The position numbers were made by a program, and so were the translations under genes. The notes under the pieces were generated by a model. The model was not told where the DNA came from and made no database searches. It saw nothing but the letters and a program-made list of their open reading frames with translations. A DNA stretch of 61,064 nt, from the NCBI GenBank assembly GCA_964400255.1, contig CAYNTR010000001.1:1-61064 (forward strand). Direction: 5' to 3'. Of this stretch, positions 14,966 through 61,064 are shown piece after piece. Position 1 is the stretch's first letter, and the number at the start of each line of letters is the position of its first letter. Source of the stretch: an uncultured Halobacteria archaeon (lineage in GTDB: Archaea; Halobacteriota; Syntropharchaeia; Alkanophagales; Methanospirareceae).

Positions 14966-15237
14966 ATGCTTCGCATAGAGCTGTCATAACAAATGTTTTT
15001 CGAGCGGAAAAAATACCGAAAAGCTTTTGTAGCATATCACCATTTTTAGTAACTATACAGAAGAGGTATGGCTGAAGCGAAGGCGGAAAGAGATAGGGTA
15101 ACAAGGAGCGAGTTTCGTCATGATGGAGAGAAAGAGAAGACACACAAAATCGGCTACATAACGCTTTATACCAAATATTTTATTGTTACAGGGCCCTGTT
15201 CTTACACGGGGTATGTGACTTAAAAGGAGGTGGGCAA

Positions 15238-15339
15238 ATGAATAAAATTTTTAGTGTGATGAAAGGGTTTAAGAGCAAATTCGTATATAAAGAGTTTTTT
15301 ACCATTGTTGAGTGTTATAACCAAGGAGGATTCTCATGA
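15238..15339 (+). CDS. Possible 33-aa leader ORF
   Basis: AAGGAGGTG lies 6 nt upstream of the ATG. The product is MNKIFSVMKGFKSKFVYKEFFTIVECYNQGGFS. Its TGA overlaps the next ATG (ATGA). Below the ORF-track cutoff. Confidence 0.3.
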   Translation: MNKIFSVMKGFKSKFVYKEFFTIVECYNQGGFS

Positions 15340-15650
15340 CTAAAACTGTTGAAAATTCTAAACAGGAAATACCAATAGCTATAAAAATCCACATTGCCAT
15401 TTTTGCAATTGTGGTGGGCTTACAGTTGATATCGGGCATTTTTGAGGTAGTGCTTGGGGGTCCTCTTTCACATTTCTCATTAGTTTTCTGGAGTATTTTT
15501 GCTGGGATATTTTTGGGGCTCTATACGCAATTATTAAAAAGGAAGAATTGGGCAAGAATTGTTATCGGCATATTAACGATACCTCTTGGTTTAATTTTGT
15601 TACTTTCCGATGAAGCTCGATCATACTGTTTAAAAAGTGAAGGTGATTGA
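15336..15650 (+). CDS. Small membrane protein (about 3 TM)
   Basis: Hydrophobic 104-aa ORF preceded by CAAGGAGGA. AT-rich. Confidence 0.5.
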   Translation: MTKTVENSKQEIPIAIKIHIAIFAIVVGLQLISGIFEVVLGGPLSHFSLVFWSIFAGIFLGLYTQLLKRKNWARIVIGILTIPLGLILLLSDEARSYCLKSEGD

Positions 15651-15654
15651 ATGT

Positions 15655-16338
15655 ATGGATAAGAAAATGATAGGTGTATCTGTTGTATTGTTTTTGATAG
15701 TGGTCGTATTTACCTGTGGATGCATAGAGGAAGAAAAAATAAAAGGAGGGATAGAAGGAATAAAAGAGGAAAGAATAACTATAGATGGAGACGTTAACGA
15801 TTGGCATAAATTGGGAATACAACCAGTTTTGATAAGCCAAAACGATCCAAATATTTCTGACGAAGTAGATATTAAAACGCTATATCTAGCAACTGATGGG
15901 GAAAATATTTATGCTCTGATTGAATTGTATGGCAATGTTAGTGCTATGGACTATATCTATGGGATAGCTCTCAGTCCTAACAAAACTATTGAGTCTGAAT
16001 ATGATAATACCTGGTTGTCAGTACGAATAGAAGGTGGAAATTGCGAGTTTGACGGTAGATTAATTAACTATCCATTACACTTTAATTCTACTTGTGCAGT
16101 AATAGGGCAAAATATTGAATTTATATGTGAAGGCACTACACCTTCATATATCATTTCGGAGTATGGATCAAAGGATTTCAAGCCTCTTACTCCCTATACA
16201 TTGATGGAAAAAAAATTGGACTTTAAATACGGAGTCAGATTGGTATGTTATTCAGCTATTGACACGGAACCTATTGAGCGTATAGAGAAGTGTAGTCCAA
16301 AAATTTCAGATATTGTACCCAAAATTCAAGTTGTGTAA
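15655..16338 (+). CDS. Hypothetical secreted or membrane-anchored protein
   Basis: N-terminal signal/anchor MIGVSVVLFLIVVVFTCGC. ATG at 15655; the track start at 15637 is a GTG. No family recognised. Confidence 0.5.
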   Translation: MDKKMIGVSVVLFLIVVVFTCGCIEEEKIKGGIEGIKEERITIDGDVNDWHKLGIQPVLISQNDPNISDEVDIKTLYLATDGENIYALIELYGNVSAMDYIYGIALSPNKTIESEYDNTWLSVRIEGGNCEFDGRLINYPLHFNSTCAVIGQNIEFICEGTTPSYIISEYGSKDFKPLTPYTLMEKKLDFKYGVRLVCYSAIDTEPIERIEKCSPKISDIVPKIQVV

Positions 16339-53763: not shown

Positions 53764-54981
53764 TTACAGTGTTACCTGCTGTCTTACTCTAATAGTAGAT
53801 AGTGGTTTAAGTTTATAGTCTTCAAGTAAGACCGGCTGCACGCACTCTTCGGCCACACTGAGAGAGATCTCCTTAGTTCTGCCATACCGGCCTTTGCTCA
53901 CGATCACCGCATTGACCAATCCCAAAATATCCAATTCGGAGACAAAATCGGTAACCCGCCGCTGCGTTAGTGCGTCGAGGTCCAAATGGTTGCACAATCG
54001 CCGATACATGTTATAGACTTCACCACTGGAGAATCGTCTTTTATTCCGTTCCCGACTTAACATGAGCACGCTGCTGAGCACGATCTTTGATTGCAAAGGG
54101 AGTGTCTTGACCACTTCAGCCACCCGGTTCATTTCTAATTTCTCACTTGCAAGCCGCACATGTTCTTCACTCACCATATTGGAGCCTGAACGTTCTGCAA
54201 TTTCCCCTGATACCCGGAGCAGGTCAAGAGCACGCCGTGCATCTCCATGCTCCGAGGCGGCGAGCGCAGCGCAGAGCGGTATGACTGCTTCGCCAAGCAC
54301 ATCTTCATAAAAAGCACGATTCGCCCGTTCATACAAAATATCCTTCAACTGTTCGGCATTATACGGCGGGAATATTATCTCTTCCTCGCCTAACGAGGAC
54401 TTAACCCGAGGGTCTAATAAATCCGTGAAGGTGAGGTCATTAGAAATCCCTATGAGGCTGACTCGCGCATTTTTCAGCTCGCAGTTTATTCTGGTGAGGT
54501 TGTAGAGCGCTTCGTCTCCTTTAGTCGCTAACTTATCCACCTCATCTAAAATCACAATTACGCATTGTTCCTCGGTATCCAGCGAACTCTTAAACTCTGA
54601 ATACACCATATCTGTGGGCCATCCGATCATCGGAACGCGTTTATTGAATACCCGCGCGAGATACGCAAAAACCCGATACTGCGTGTCAAATACCTCACTG
54701 TTAATGTACAGCGGAGTACAATTGGTCCTCCTCTTCTGAGCCATCTCCTCTAATTCATTGCTCACATATTTTACCGTTGAGGTCTTACCCGTTCCCGTCT
54801 TCCCGTAAATCAGTATATTGGAGGGGGTCTCACCCTTTAACGCCGCGGATAGTATATTCGCTAACCCCTTTATCTGCTCATTCCGATGCGGCAATTTCTT
54901 CGGGACATAGGTGGGGCGCAGCACTTCTTTATTTGCAAATATCCCGCCCTCGTCTATAAGGCTTTCGAAGAGGTTATCCAT
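53764..54981 (-). CDS. cdc6: Orc1/Cdc6 replication initiator
   Basis: LRPTYVPKKLPHRNEQI, Walker A GKTGTGKT, Walker B ILDEVD, and a C-terminal winged helix. Confidence 0.9.
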   Translation of the reverse strand: MDNLFESLIDEGGIFANKEVLRPTYVPKKLPHRNEQIKGLANILSAALKGETPSNILIYGKTGTGKTSTVKYVSNELEEMAQKRRTNCTPLYINSEVFDTQYRVFAYLARVFNKRVPMIGWPTDMVYSEFKSSLDTEEQCVIVILDEVDKLATKGDEALYNLTRINCELKNARVSLIGISNDLTFTDLLDPRVKSSLGEEEIIFPPYNAEQLKDILYERANRAFYEDVLGEAVIPLCAALAASEHGDARRALDLLRVSGEIAERSGSNMVSEEHVRLASEKLEMNRVAEVVKTLPLQSKIVLSSVLMLSRERNKRRFSSGEVYNMYRRLCNHLDLDALTQRRVTDFVSELDILGLVNAVIVSKGRYGRTKEISLSVAEECVQPVLLEDYKLKPLSTIRVRQQVTL

Positions 54982-56268: not shown

Positions 56269-57306
56269 CTACATCCTTATTTTCCGTTGATGTTTTGCAT
56301 ACCCTGCGTAATCGAGATATTTTTTCGTAAGAAGGAATGATTCAACCTTCGGCGCTCGCTCCCGCAGCTCATCGATCCGGTCGGTAACGCGCAATACAAA
56401 CGCGTCGGAACCCGCGCCCGAGCCAAACGAGGTCATTAATATCCGTTGCGAAGGCATTGCCTGGTCAAGGGTTGCGGCAAGCCCTATCAACGAAGATGCG
56501 GAATACGTGTTTCCGAAGTGCGTGACCATCAGACCCGGTTTGAGTTGGGCGGAGGAGAACCCGAGCGACTTTGCAGCCTTGAGTGGGAATTTGCCGTTCG
56601 GTTGATGGAAGACGGCGAAGTCAAAATCCGTGGGTTGAAGGCCCGTTTTTTCCATCAATGCCTGAGAAGCGGCGATGGTATGCCGGAAATACGCAGGTTC
56701 ACCGGTGAAGCGACCGCCGTGTGCGGGGTATTTCTGGAGGTCTCGGCGCCAGAAGTCCGGGGTATCGGTGGTAAAAGACGCATACTCCTCTATCTCCGCG
56801 ACGATGTTGTCGTGCCCGATGACAAAAGCGGCGGCACCGGCGCCGGCGGAATATTCTAACGCATCGCCCGGGCTTGATTGCGAGACATCCGCACCGATCG
56901 CAACGCCGTAGGTTACTTTATTGAGCGATACGAGGCCCATACACGTTTGTATTGCTGCAGTACCCGCTTTACAGGCGAATTCGAAGTCTGCAGCGGTGAT
57001 AGAGTGTGGCGCACCGAGTGCCGCCGCAACGATAGTGGCGGTGGGCTTGACGGCATAGGGGTGGCTTTCCGAGCCGACGTAGATGGCACCAATGTTCGCG
57101 GGATTCAGTTCCGCTCGGCGGATCGCAGCACGAGCGGCCTCTACCGCCATTGTCGCGGTATCTTCATCGAGGTCAGGCACGGACTTCTCTTCCACGAGCA
57201 ACCCGGCCTTGATGTTCTCGGGATTTTCACCCCACTGTCTCGCGATATCATCCACTCGTATCCTATACAAAGGCACGTAGACGCCATACGAGACTAATCC
57301 TATCAT
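56269..57306 (-). CDS. Hydroxymethylglutaryl-CoA synthase (archaeal type)
   Basis: [18 protein letters not shown] and FHQPNGKF are HMGCS signatures. The gene lies immediately upstream of the thiolase. Confidence 0.85.
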
Positions 57307-58447
57307 GAGAAATAGATTTATGGGCGCAGATAATAAAAGTTACGTTAAGATGAACGAAGAGCTGAAAGATTACCTGGCGCGCAAATTTGGAACGCCACTG
57401 AAACTCATCAGTGTAACGGAATTAGGACTGGAGTCGGATTCCAAGCAGAGGGAGGAGCGTGATATAAAAGGGTTCGGGTATGGGAAACCGTACCTCGTTG
57501 AGTTTGAGCGGGGAGGAGAAGTAAAGGAAGTCGTTATCTCCACGATGAAGGGTGATGGGTTCGGGCATGACCATTTCTCGGACCGTGCACAGATCATGCT
57601 CTGGCAGCACCATGCGTTCAATACGCTGCCGAAGCATGTGAAGTCACGCGATGTCGGGTACCTCACAAAAGACGGAAAGATGGAATCGACCAGTGATGCG
57701 GAGGAATTTTTTATTGTCTGTGATAAAGTGGAAGGCGAGGAATACGTTCACGATTTAAACCGATTACGAGACGGTGGGCAATTACGCGCGCTGGATAAGG
57801 AACGAGTATCTGCGTTGGCTTCGTATCTGGCTGAGATTCATGCAGTGAAGAAAGACGATGAGCAGCTTTACGTGCGAAGGATACGGGAGTTGGTGGGGCA
57901 TAGCGAATGCATCTTCGGATTGACAGACAGTTATCCTCCACATAGTGAATTCATAACGGGCGATACACTGAAAGAAATAGAGAAAAAGTGCATCGACTGG
58001 CGCTGGAAACTGAAAGAGCGGACGAACAGGTTATGCCAAGTGCACGGGGATTTCCACCCGTGGAACGTGATGTTCCGGGAAGGCACTGATTTCACGGTAC
58101 TCGACCGCAGCCGGGGCGAATGGGGCGAAGTGGCAGATGACGTCTCATCAATGACCATCAATTATCTCTTTTTCGGGCTGCTCAAAACGGATGGTAAGGA
58201 GCTTGATCGAGAGTTCAAGGAGTTATTCGAGCTGTTCTTTGACGTTTACCTGAAGAAGACGGGCGATTACGAGTTGCTGGAGGTGATTCAGCCGTTTTAT
58301 GCGTTTCGGGGGCTTGTCGTTGCATCGCCTGTTTGGTACCCCAACATCTCGCTGGCTACACGGCGGAAATTGTTTAACATCATCAAGAACGTGCTCGACG
58401 CGGAGAAGTTTGATTATAAGGGCGTGGAAAAGTATTTGGAAGGATAG
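57305..58447 (+). CDS. Aminoglycoside-phosphotransferase-like (protein-kinase-fold) phosphotransferase
   Basis: [11 protein letters not shown] catalytic loop followed by [10 protein letters not shown]. The true start may be 57320 or 57350 (MNEELKDY), because 57305 overlaps the divergent HMGCS ATG. Confidence 0.65.
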
Positions 58448-58688
58448 ATAGAAATACGACAACAAGGCTGCGTGAGCGTATTTTGTAGGAATGATCTGAA
58501 GCACTAATGAGCAAGCAGATTGCAGGATCAATACCAGAGTTGTAGCTAGCGATTATGCGTTATGTACGCGGAACGCCAAAGATGAGCTGCCACAAAAACC
58601 GTTGAACTATTTGAATTTGCGATAAATCGGCTCGGCTTTTGTGGTCTGTCTCAATCTTTTTATTAGGGCTTTCAATTTTACAATTTTC

Positions 58689-59378
58689 TCATTTTGCAAC
58701 CCAAACATCTGCCTGAGGGTCATATTCAAAGTCTTTTGGATCACCTGGGCAGATTGAACCAACATGTTCAATACCAGTTTGTCTATCTTTTATTATCGTT
58801 TGATATAGGCCAACAATGCTTTGTTCTACCCTAACTTCTGTCGAGGCATCTTGATAAATGATGCCGTTCCCTTGGTTTTTTCCAATAGCAGATCTCTCCA
58901 CAATAGGAGGCATTACTATTCGAATCTCTCTTTTTACATTTGCCTTCTCTATAATCTTCTTAATTTTCTCTACGGATTTATCGGAAAAAGTGTTGTCGAT
59001 AAATCGTTTCTCGAAATTGGTCTTTCTAAAACTTAACACATACTCATTTTTATCATTTAAATTCCATTTCATGATGTCATCTACGAAAAAGGTAAAAAGG
59101 TGAGTGTTTCCCCCATTACCAGCATCAATATATAAAAAGGTAACAAAAGAACCCTTTACATATTCTTGTGGAATTTTAATCGATGACGATCCAGAATTAA
59201 TCAAAGACCTCCCTTTACATTGAATCCGACAAATGCTAACACTATCTTTTACCTCCATTAGAGCGATTAAGTCAGCACCTTCCCTATCAAACTTAGGTTT
59301 TAATATGAGGATACCAGCACTTTCTAATTTGTGTGCTACTAAATCCTCTGCGGTGGATTCCATGAGTTTTGTATCCAT
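58689..59378 (-). CDS. Hypothetical protein with a DUF4365-like PD-(D/E)xK N-terminal domain
   Basis: AEDLVAHKLESAG...FDREGADLIAL...ICRIQCKGRS fits the E...D...(Q/E)xK nuclease pattern. The C-terminal ~100 aa are unassigned. AT-rich. Confidence 0.45.
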   Translation of the reverse strand: MDTKLMESTAEDLVAHKLESAGILILKPKFDREGADLIALMEVKDSVSICRIQCKGRSLINSGSSSIKIPQEYVKGSFVTFLYIDAGNGGNTHLFTFFVDDIMKWNLNDKNEYVLSFRKTNFEKRFIDNTFSDKSVEKIKKIIEKANVKREIRIVMPPIVERSAIGKNQGNGIIYQDASTEVRVEQSIVGLYQTIIKDRQTGIEHVGSICPGDPKDFEYDPQADVWVAK

Positions 59379-59398
59379 ATTTCTCTCAATCCATGAGC

Positions 59399-59465
59399 CC
59401 TAACATTGCTTTTTATATTTATTCTATTATTTCCCAAATCGTATAAATAACCATTGGTAAATTAC
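59399..59465 (-). promoter_or_regulatory. Conserved upstream element U1 (TATA-containing) of the 58689-59378 gene
   Basis: About 75% identical by eye to 60939-61004. The minus strand contains TTATTTATACGATTTGGGAAATAATAGAATAAATATAAAAAGCAATGTTAGG. Confidence 0.45.
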
Positions 59466-59514
59466 TATCTTATATCCTAAATTATTTCAAATCAACGCCG
59501 GAGTAAGAGCGTGA

Positions 59515-59766
59515 CGTAAAGGGGTTCGGGATTTCAACGCGTTATATGACCTGTTTTTTGACGTCTACCTCAACGAGACAGGAGATTATGAATTATTAGG
59601 GGTCATACAGCCCTTTTATGCGTTTCGAGGGCTCGTGGTCGCGTCGCCCGTATGGTATCCCAACATTTCACTGGCTACCCGACGGAAGTTGTTTAACTTC
59701 ATCAAGAACGTGCTTGAAGCGGAGGAGTTTGAGTATAAGGGTGTGAGTAAGTATTTGGAGGGATGA
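59515..59766 (+). pseudogene. Orphan 3' fragment of a kinase-like gene (duplicate of 58208-58447)
   Basis: The fragment translates to [79 protein letters not shown]. That is ~80% identical to the C-terminus of the intact gene. It is preceded by an in-frame TGA and has no start codon. Confidence 0.85.
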
Positions 59767-59907
59767 AGTGGTAATCGTAAGAGATTTTATCTCGAGGACC
59801 CGAAGCTCAAGAATACCCTCAACGAGTGCCTCCACGGATAAAGTCCTCACTGCTCTAACGGCCAAGCTCAGCTGCGCCGCTTTAGTGGCGTCGGTTGGAG
59901 TAGATTG

Positions 59908-60905
59908 TTAGGTACTAAATTGTAACACTTTCTTTAGTTCGCTTAGCAGATGCGCTGATTCTTCTCGGTTTAGATAAGGAACTTTGATTGTGCGAGCCCC
60001 AAAAAAGGATTTACCCGTCACCTGTGAAACTTGGCTAAATGGCATACATTTAATGATGCCCTGATCGCGCTTAGGAATTGGCGTAAGAAATCTCACATCT
60101 CGGTATTTTTCATCTGGCCCCTCATCCTTCACTGATCCAATTACTTCCGCAGCAGCGACGATACCCACCCACTTGTGCGAAAAGAAGACAAGGTCCTTAG
60201 GATTAAGATATTCAACGACATATTTTATATTGCCGTATGCGGCTACACGAGATTTTTCCATCATTTCCCATATGGCGTCTTCGTAATAGCTACGGTTCGT
60301 ATCGAATAGCACTCCTTTTATGACTGCTGGATTTTGGTGTCTATCATATGGTAAAGCAAAAAACTCAAAATAGTATTGCTCGCCAATTCTATATACGCGA
60401 TAAGGTAAAAAATCAGCAGATAGACCTTGTCGCTTCCAGTAATCTACAGCATTTATTAACGCATCGTTTGCAGCGTTGCCAACAATGACGAACTGTTGCC
60501 GTCTGTTGAACTCGGAGGGTAATAAGGGGCGCTCTAGGTTGAAAGCTTCTTTATGTGCTTCAGCCAATGAAACTGCATCCTTTTGGTAATATGTCTTGTA
60601 TCGCTCTTCAAGTTTGTTATATGTCCACTGCCCGGCATCTTGGGCATAACGCAGCGCTTGGAGCATGGCATCAGCGCCGGCAAATCCCCATCGTGGTTTA
60701 GGGCGTAAATATCGGCCTCTGCTTGCATCGCTCGCTCTTGGAATATTGGCATAAGGGCAGCACCTTCAAAAAGCACATCAAATAAATGTTCCGCTAAAAT
60801 TATCTCTAAATCCTTCTCAAGCATCCTAAGTTCTGAGAAATCAAGAAAGGGGAGAGATTCCAAATTTTCGAACGCATCATCTGATCTTGTTAGCTTGTAA
60901 AGCAT
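59908..60905 (-). pseudogene. Frameshifted nuclease-like (NucS/DUF91-type N-terminus) plus EVE/PUA-like C-terminal gene
   Basis: Two overlapping ORFs (60534-60905 and 59908-60666) read as one gene broken near 60670-60700. The N-terminal part ends ...AEADIYALNHDGDL where an ExK strand is expected. The second frame continues GADAMLQALRYA. The C-terminus has DLVFFSHKWVGIVAAAEVIGSV (EVE-like). Confidence 0.45.
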
Positions 60906-60938
60906 AGTAGCTCCTTGATGCTTTGATAGCCAAAAGCA

Positions 60939-61004
60939 CCTAACTTGCTTTTTATCTTTATCCTAGTATTTCTCAATCGGATATAAATAAACGTAGTAAT
61001 TTAT
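60939..61004 (-). promoter_or_regulatory. Conserved upstream element U2 of the 59908-60905 gene
   Basis: Homologous to U1. The minus strand contains TTATTTATATCCGATTGAGAAATACTAGGATAAAGATAAAAAGCAAGTTAGG. Confidence 0.45.
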
Positions 61005-61064
61005 CATACCTCTTAAGTATATCGTGCCGAAAAGAAAGGATTATAAAGATGCACAATCCATTTT

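Follow-up and report, generated by a model that had tools for sequence, protein, structure and literature searches.

Tandem cargo genes behind a phosphotransferase gene in an ANME-1 archaeon: the probable kinase-proximal part of a sedentary integron-type cassette array

At the right end of a 61,064-nt stretch of archaeal DNA (GenBank GCA_964400255.1, contig CAYNTR010000001.1; the whole stretch is called the window here), the 3' end of a kinase gene occurs twice in tandem, and each copy is followed by a minus-strand cargo gene and an upstream element, U, that the two units share. Which kind of system builds such units, and how did a piece of the flanking gene come to lie inside it? The window is the entire contig C1 of a metagenome-assembled genome (MAG) of ANME-1 (Methanophagales), G000, which comprises 142 contigs and 2.06 Mb. 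The first-pass annotation of this DNA had proposed a cassette-exchange hotspot with conserved flanks, and comparison of the locus across genomes supports this description, as the cargo turns over even between close relatives. We conclude that the region is probably the kinase-proximal part of a sedentary integron-type cassette array, i.e., a cluster of attC sites lacking integron-integrases (CALIN), which occupies the interval between the kinase gene and an arcTGT-like gene (tgt) in many ANME-1 genera.

The left flank of the array is a conserved gene for an APH-family phosphotransferase, referred to as the kinase (57305..58447, plus strand; Pfam APH, E = 1e-8), with orthologues in 34 of 41 relatives. 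Alignment of the two copies of its 3' end verified the reported tandem repeat: 58207-58445 and 59526-59764, the latter 1319 nt downstream, are 81% identical in nucleotides and 84% in amino acids, ungapped, and both tails stop at the same position. The proposed shared element was likewise recovered. U is AT-rich, about 70 nt long and precedes both minus-strand cargo genes, with an 85% match between 59399-59450 and 60939-60990. The cargo genes are indeed unrelated, as cargo 1 and cargo 2 show no similarity to each other or to the cargo genes of relatives, and the second gene is split into two overlapping frames.

The first-pass annotation had advised a look past position 61064 for an integrase or more units, and contig C80 of the same MAG continues the locus with a third cargo gene and a third U. 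C1 terminates at 61064 within a multi-copy IS630-family element that is inserted in U2 at TTAAG; the left end of this insertion sequence (IS; 61013..61064, plus strand) is the reason why the contig ends. The last 52-53 nt of C1 were found again at the ends of at least 11 other G000 contigs. C80 opens with the opposite end of the IS (C80:1-61), and its initial 60 nt are repeated at no fewer than six other contig ends. When the end of C1 is joined to the start of C80, an uninterrupted module of U and a short conserved segment called D results, which is 86-88% identical to the modules of other genomes across the joint. C80 then continues with the D segment, a minus-strand cargo 3 (C80:251-1036), U3 (C80:1056-1133) and tgt, which encodes a 596-amino-acid protein. 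The full order is kinase, spacer sp1, cassette 1 (attC1 and cargo 1), U1, foreign kinase relic, spacer sp2, cassette 2 (attC2 and cargo 2), U2 cut by the IS630 element, D, cargo 3, U3 and tgt.

The evidence that carries the array reading lies at the ends of the cargo genes, described here in gene sense, i.e., in the sense of the cargo genes, which is the minus strand of the window. Each cargo gene forms a cassette that starts with TTRRRY, contains one open reading frame (ORF) and ends in an attC hairpin, whose RYYYAAC box abuts or overlaps the stop codon and is complementary to the cassette's own start. From the stop-proximal box of a cassette to the next G|TT we found a 50-100-nt imperfect palindrome with RYYYAAC and GTTRRRY boxes. 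A covariance model, R1, was built from six sites found in relatives, with short and long variants dropped because they were misaligned. The alignment of these six predicts 17 base pairs, and compensatory changes support 11 of the pairs; the model recovers 33 sites across arrays.

In the window, the attC2 site of cassette 2 (59853..59913, minus strand; R'' ACCTAAC, which overlaps the stop codon, and R' GTTAGAG) matches R1 with 26.7 bits, and neither the rest of the 61-kb window nor the remainder of the genome has another match (E = 1.6e-6 with the search limited to 58400-60000). Its R'' box is complementary to the 5' end of cassette 2, GTTAGGTGC, at 9/10 positions. The attC1 site of cassette 1 (58568..58670, minus strand) consists, in gene sense, of R'' AGCCCTAAT, a long imperfect hairpin and R' GTTCCGC. 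As single-stranded DNA it folds with -16.4 kcal/mol (z = -2.4; 3/200 shuffles were as good), and its R'' pairs with the 5' end of cassette 1, GTTAGGGCT, at 8-9 of 10-11 positions. Measured against the definition of an integron or CALIN by at least two attC sites within 4 kb, the region contains such sites, attC2 being strong and attC1 weak to the model, and its cassette ends are circularly permuted with a G|TT crossover.

The relation between the two ends of a cassette holds beyond the window. In a set of 73 non-redundant cassettes, we took the 11-mer at each U edge and looked for its reverse complement next to stop codons: it occurs at the stop of its own cassette more often than the 11-mers of other cassettes do (Wilcoxon p = 4e-6), and complementarity reaches 10-11/11 in several of them. 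This 11-mer complementarity is the R''/R' relation of integron cassettes. On the plus strand, the U edge reads ...RYYYAAC|ATTGC, and among 76 unique U copies the positions before AAC| carry 0.1-0.6 bits of information, those after it 1.6-2.0 bits. One ParD/ParE cassette has U in front of it in three genomes, but in G050 it comes after the attC of another cassette; homology between these contexts breaks exactly at AAC|. The comparison amounts to a direct demonstration of cassette behavior.

Remains of an integrase are present beside U. Many U copies have degenerate plus-strand coding remains of a tyrosine recombinase on their right. On one metagenome contig (L119), a near-full intI pseudogene persists about 300 nt right of a type-A U, with the motif ALEKKYPNAGKEWGWFWLFPS...DPR; its 217-amino-acid read-through fragment scores 246 bits with TIGR02249, 'integron integrase', versus 90 bits with archaeal XerA. 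C-terminal IntI relics (YVHPASLQKAFKTAVGKAGITKNA.VHTLRHSFATHLLE) are typically found about 100 nt right of U, at 20 loci or more, a few of which are duplicate contigs, and they are always divergent from the cassettes. A 5' fragment of intI follows a type-A U in L041, and G050 has also kept a 5' piece.

Two other ideas were tried and rejected. Searches for an integrase beside the arrays gave PF00589 matches in eight genomes, which lie on other contigs save for one relic in G063; a virus or plasmid carrier was dismissed because IMG/VR contains no copy of U and its IntI relatives reach an identity of just 38-46%. G000 itself encodes a 349-amino-acid tyrosine recombinase of the XerA type (G000:C41:~15000-16050; NF040815, 235.7 bits, at or above the cut-off), which has orthologues in much of the family. 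With the integron-integrase model it reaches 243 bits, yet the IntI insert is missing, and we consider it a candidate trans-acting recombinase. In L052 (G006:C92:7839-9254), about 5 kb separate an array U from a 472-amino-acid integrase of another type, which is 87% identical to one on G000:C118 and is possibly part of an integrated element near the G006 array.

The U element is a regular and conserved component of the array. U1, of type A (59402..59480, plus strand; nhmmer E = 1.5e-20), has the cassette boundary AA|C at 59403/59404; U2, of type B, is cut by the IS (60942..61013, plus strand; E = 3.4e-21), and U3, also of type B, is 87% identical to U2. No U was found elsewhere in the 2.06 Mb of G000 beyond these three copies. 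With up to three mismatches allowed, 34 of the 68 genomes searched in this order contain a 24-nt U core, TTTTTATMTTTATYCTATTATTTC, in 1-7 copies each, clustered on one contig per genome and in a single orientation (a reversed control pattern gave 0-1 matches). The core matches exactly in 25 stretches of genomes and 38 of metagenomes, and almost all of these belong to ANME-1. We rejected a dispersed repeat or miniature inverted-repeat transposable element, since the G000 copies are found only at the array locus and those of relatives are clustered on one contig, and also a structured RNA or DNA hairpin, since U has no fold (z -0.5 to +1.3; U1 z = +0.65).

Type-A U is natively followed by D, an extension and intI, and type-B U runs into the tgt leader in some copies and into D with a C-terminal intI relic in others. 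In gene sense, U contains a TATA-like box, AATAAAKATAAAAA, which precedes the cargo start codons by about 40 nt; a second one, TATAAATA, faces the opposite way, toward intI or, in the tgt-proximal copy, toward tgt. From this arrangement we infer that U may act as a bidirectional archaeal promoter, equivalent to the cassette promoter (Pc) and the integrase promoter (Pint) of integrons. We read U as an attI-like site with putative recombination activity because it has no fold, is conserved on one side of the crossover and has intI adjacent wherever intI survives.

A minus-strand ORF begins at the left edge of nearly every U, and these ORFs differ widely. Clustering of the 47 cargo proteins encoded next to a U gave 39 clusters, and the domains among the sampled cargo include ThsB-type TIR, TIR_2, CAP12/Pycsar TIR, HNH, Mrr, endonuclease/exonuclease/phosphatase (EEP) and ParE. 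Over the family, the kinase-to-tgt interval holds from 0 to at least 8 single-gene cassettes with almost no common cargo; the 8 or more cassettes of G013 are spread over three contigs. Cassettes differ even between genomes with flanks that are 93-95% identical; in another case, a 2-kb segment with a cassette and its U is 96% identical in two genera, an indirect hint that cassettes may excise and re-insert. The three cargo proteins of G000 do not recur in the species genomes examined. Cargo 3 has homologues with 75-78% identity in three metagenome arrays.

For the individual cargo genes, PDB sequence searches gave no matches and NCBIfam nothing meaningful. Cargo 1 (58689..59378, minus strand; 229 amino acids) has a G+C content of 36% versus 46% for the genome, and a possible PD-(D/E)XK N-terminal domain. 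Its earlier description as DUF4365-like could not be confirmed, as Pfam returns only a match to PDDEXK_5 (PD-(D/E)XK_5) with E = 0.009, below the cut-off, and PADLOC, NCBIfam and PDB sequence searches yielded no relatives. Cargo 2 (59908..60905, minus strand) is frameshifted, with overlapping frames 60905-60534 and 60666-59908; its C-terminal frame matches the PADLOC candidate PDC-S11 with E = 5.4e-9, so that we list it as a PDC-S11-like defence candidate. Elsewhere, a cassette encoding a ParE toxin and a 61-amino-acid antitoxin recurs across genera with 75-95% amino acid identity (L058:5124-5599; L042:9024-9505; L045, L047, L041, L021) and is tgt-proximal in several genomes (L058, L059).

How the interval looks without an array can be seen in two genera (L027/G016 and L034/G022), in which the kinase and tgt-like genes are adjacent or overlapping, with a gap of at most 18 nt. 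Many other genomes carry 1-6.6 kb of inserts, with U copies between kinase and tgt. The adjacency in the two genera therefore indicates that the integron-type insert split an apparent operon and that tgt must have gained a new promoter. Four species of one genus (L025/G004, L028/G012, L029/G009, L031/G003) are without U; there, a conserved region of more than 9 kb (~90%) after the kinase replaces the array and tgt. In L043 (G063:C26:8500-13900), the neighbors of the array are a TrmO-like and a CobT-like gene, named from their translations alone; this array has three U copies, a kinase relic and a C-terminal relic of intI. Neither kinase nor tgt is nearby on that contig, and the array, or part of it, has been relocated.

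The orphan kinase 3' end (59527..59766, plus strand) corresponds to codons 302-380, and its 80-codon frame is open. The 48 differences between the orphan and resident tails are distributed over the three codon positions as 5/5/38 (p = 1.4e-10). This split and the open frame argue that the divergence arose while both tails belonged to working genes. Within the comparison set, the closest tail to the orphan is that of a kinase from another genus (86%). On these grounds, the orphan tail appears to be a recently stranded piece of the functional kinase of another lineage, imported with that lineage's array end. A patch resembling kinase codons 46-58 (57440-57478) is fused to the orphan tail (59492..59530, plus strand); this likeness is weak, with 24-39 nt and 74% identity over 39 nt, and was beaten or equalled by 14/2000 shuffles (p ~0.007). 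The patch suggests a later internal deletion within the imported kinase copy.

The spacers behind the two tails are of different types. The 120-nt sp1 (58448..58567), which terminates in GCGTTATGTAC-GCGGAAC, follows the kinase stop as the fixed distal array end. It is 87-91% identical over several genera and better kept than the kinase coding sequence, has no Rfam or tRNA match and could represent either the target site as it first was or a terminal cassette that lacks an ORF. An alternative spacer type, sp2 (59767..59852), has 82-90% matches in other genomes: sp2-like sequence lies right after the kinase stop in G008 and within the arrays of G007 and G013. Tail, sp2, attC2, cargo 2 and U2 would together be the kinase-proximal end of another lineage's array. 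The left joint of the imported segment lies inside a type-A U module and the right joint inside an intI relic, neither being an att crossover, which points to non-site-specific capture of foreign locus DNA. Kinase relics within arrays were also found in G013, G063, G058, G010 and several metagenome contigs, with start codons that vary (254, 264, 274, 300-316, 357), and array-end import therefore happens repeatedly.

Taken as a mechanism, the array would work as follows. Cassettes would enter the double-stranded attI-like U at GCAATG|TT (gene sense), and one TATA-like box of U would drive the adjacent cassette, the other having originally driven the divergent intI. The integrase is a true IntI that has been lost from G000, and after the loss of intI the Pint-side box of the tgt-proximal U would serve tgt. 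The foreign array end would have been joined by recombination outside att sites and then trimmed by deletion.

Several observations weigh against this reading. All data come from MAGs and metagenome contigs. The attC1 site scores only 5.6 bits with R1, although in the correct place and on the correct strand, and cargo 3 has no recognizable attC, its site having been lost. No intact IntI was found in G000 or in the 68 species genomes of the order, and present-day movement of cassettes by IntI is putative only. As G000 has no intact IntI, and no adjacent intI with an IntI-specific domain that would make a complete integron, we class the array as a CALIN. Canonical integrons contain a single attI, whereas here U, the D segment and an intI relic are repeated every 1-2 cassettes, which the textbook model does not foresee; U has one-sided conservation, a G|TT boundary and an adjacent intI in L119 and L041, yet it is repeated within arrays. 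The promoter function of U is a reading of its sequence. Finally, homology breakpoints between arrays scatter in U over HMM positions 34-130. A single precise crossover point in U for every array homology break was therefore rejected, and the scatter indicates that homologous recombination contributes too.

A further reading, which we hold only tentatively and think less likely than not to be correct, is that the module of U, D and degenerate intI is itself mobile, so that an integron 'head' would move like a cassette. In gene sense, the module starts immediately behind the R' box of an attC, with TTATCTTATC, and extends to the insertion point GCAATG|. If it is mobile, arrays would be repeated promoter-bearing platforms, each serving 1-2 captured genes; the integron architecture would be adapted to archaeal transcription, seeding insertion points and promoters where it lands, and the essential tgt would have taken over the inward-facing promoter after the loss of intI.

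Four other explanations of the tandem units were weighed against the array. Had cargo alleles simply been swapped or stacked by homologous recombination through the kinase/sp and U/tgt flanks, with no integrase and with the palindromes acting as terminators, one would expect the scattered breakpoints in U, the variable start points of the kinase relics, the lack of an intact IntI in all 68 genomes and a foreign kinase tail, which indicates that whole locus segments move. Such a scheme leaves unexplained why cassette ends are complementary over up to 11 nt, why homology breaks exactly at AAC| between the U and attC contexts, why an IntI pseudogene and IntI relics lie beside U and why the AAC...GTT hairpins covary, and we regard it as improbable. 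The first-pass annotation had invoked recombination through the kinase and U flanks, and part of this survives: attC sites, G|TT boundaries and IntI relics argue against it as the main mechanism, but the idea does fit the segment from the orphan tail to U2.

The same annotation had offered, as an equivalent, an element that targets the kinase 3' end. A small integrative element of this kind would bring its own copy of the tail and leave the orphan as the displaced original (attR), which agrees with the shared stop of the duplicated tails and with third-position divergence if both tails served functional genes. The idea was given up because the cargo genes have their own attC sites and G|TT boundaries and U is attI-like. 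The units have no integrase in or beside them, as had been noted for the window, and neither an own integrase nor fixed att repeats were found; kinase relics in other genomes begin at many codons and deep within arrays, a kinase 5' patch precedes the orphan, sp2 lies elsewhere directly after the kinase stop, at a normal array start, and unit boundaries match attC/attI logic and not the kinase repeat. This makes it very improbable. No more credible is an old in-situ tandem duplication of the kinase and its neighbor, after which the second kinase decayed and one cargo was replaced: the units do lie in tandem, and the 5' patch suggests that the orphan was once part of a longer kinase copy, but decay in place would spread changes evenly, and a 5/5/38 split with an open frame was observed. 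Moreover, the two spacers are different alleles, each present in other genomes, and the cargo variation at the locus is extreme; a second paralogue that decayed at a locus without cargo variation, the scenario named earlier as refuting the hotspot, is excluded by this turnover. The least credible explanation is an assembly artefact in which two strain alleles were concatenated. A MAG of 142 contigs, with a contig broken at a repeat, could invite it, but the kinase tails are 19% diverged, far above strain level, the joint between U1 and the tail is not at a shared repeat, and similar kinase relics occur in the arrays of several independent assemblies.

With the integron-type array as the preferred reading, the locus can be compared with known systems. 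It resembles bacterial sedentary chromosomal integrons and CALINs, e.g., the Vibrio superintegron with its VCR-type attC sites (VCR, Vibrio cholerae repeat), in having one-ORF cassettes in a single orientation, RYYYAAC/GTTRRRY attC hairpins with a G|TT crossover and a homogeneous, family-specific attC type, and also in its fixed chromosomal site, its toxin-antitoxin and defence-type cargo and an integrase that is often inactivated. It differs from them in its archaeal host and in the frequency of the attI-like element, which with an intI relic recurs every 1-2 cassettes whereas bacterial attI occurs once. Furthermore, the ANME-1 U has archaeal TATA-type boxes, giving each short cassette run its own putative promoter, and the arrays embed fragments of the flanking housekeeping gene.

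The core defence hotspots of Pseudomonas aeruginosa share with the ANME-1 locus two conserved flanking genes and variable, defence-type content. These hotspots are reportedly without dedicated recombination sites, in contrast to the attC/attI-type sites and IntI relics described here. Prochlorococcus tycheposons, integrative elements in tandem arrays with repeated partial target genes, carry their own integrases and use their repeats as att sites, and 3' fragments of the flanking gene record successive acquisitions. The ANME-1 locus also repeats 3' fragments of a flanking gene within a cargo island, but its kinase fragments have variable ends and are not recombination sites.

To our knowledge, nothing is known of archaeal integrons with respect to their location, the form of their attI or promoter, or cassette expression under archaeal transcription. 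Our literature search for an ANME-1 integron or hotspot found only the catalogue of the study that discovered archaeal integrons (Ghaly et al., 2022; Sci Adv 8:eabq6376; PMC9668308), in which six integrases are listed along with clusters of attC sites. That study described IntI with an IntI-specific domain, mostly CALIN attC arrays and a putative attI with the canonical insertion point, and its Data S1-S3 include two MAGs of ANME-1: 7 attCs and an IntI are given for the first, 2 attCs for the second. An intact ANME-1 IntI lies on QENK01000356. These entries of the catalogue are table rows for other contigs (JAFNKG010000033, QENK010000...), and the article is without a description of the family-wide kinase-tgt locus, of U and its repetition, of the promoter reading, of the kinase relics or of the cargo spectrum. 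The kind of element is thus known; what is new is that the site is conserved, that an attI/promoter element is present and repeated, that the cargo is rich in defence genes and that kinase relics are embedded in the arrays. Delta-attI-type gene cassettes are unusual cassettes that place attI remnants within the arrays of mobile integrons (Sci Rep 2026; PMC12901181). They are sporadic and belong to clinical class 1 integrons; the ANME-1 attI-like module is regular, conserved and putatively promoter-bearing.

The locus offers a concrete model across a family, at a fixed site in an uncultured, globally important methane-oxidizing lineage, with a defined attI-like element that carries TATA-type boxes, a homogeneous attC type and cargo that is largely of the defence and toxin-antitoxin type. 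It also shows a second route of array growth, the import from other lineages of complete array ends that bring parts of the kinase gene at their flank along. Recognition of attI, promoter use and the question of what moves cassettes once intI is dead are directly testable in heterologous assays.

The remaining observations concern the surroundings of the array. Copies of the IS630-family element, at least 11 in number, break many contigs of G000. A diverged full copy of about 1.1 kb lies at C107:5057-6165, with a frameshifted transposase gene; from a reading of its translation alone, we take it to encode an IS630-type DDE transposase. Between 57000 and 61064, Rfam and tRNA searches found no known RNA or tRNA. 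An Orc1/Cdc6 gene, likewise named from its translation, is located at 53764-54981, 2.3 kb upstream of the kinase, so that the array may sit near a replication origin.

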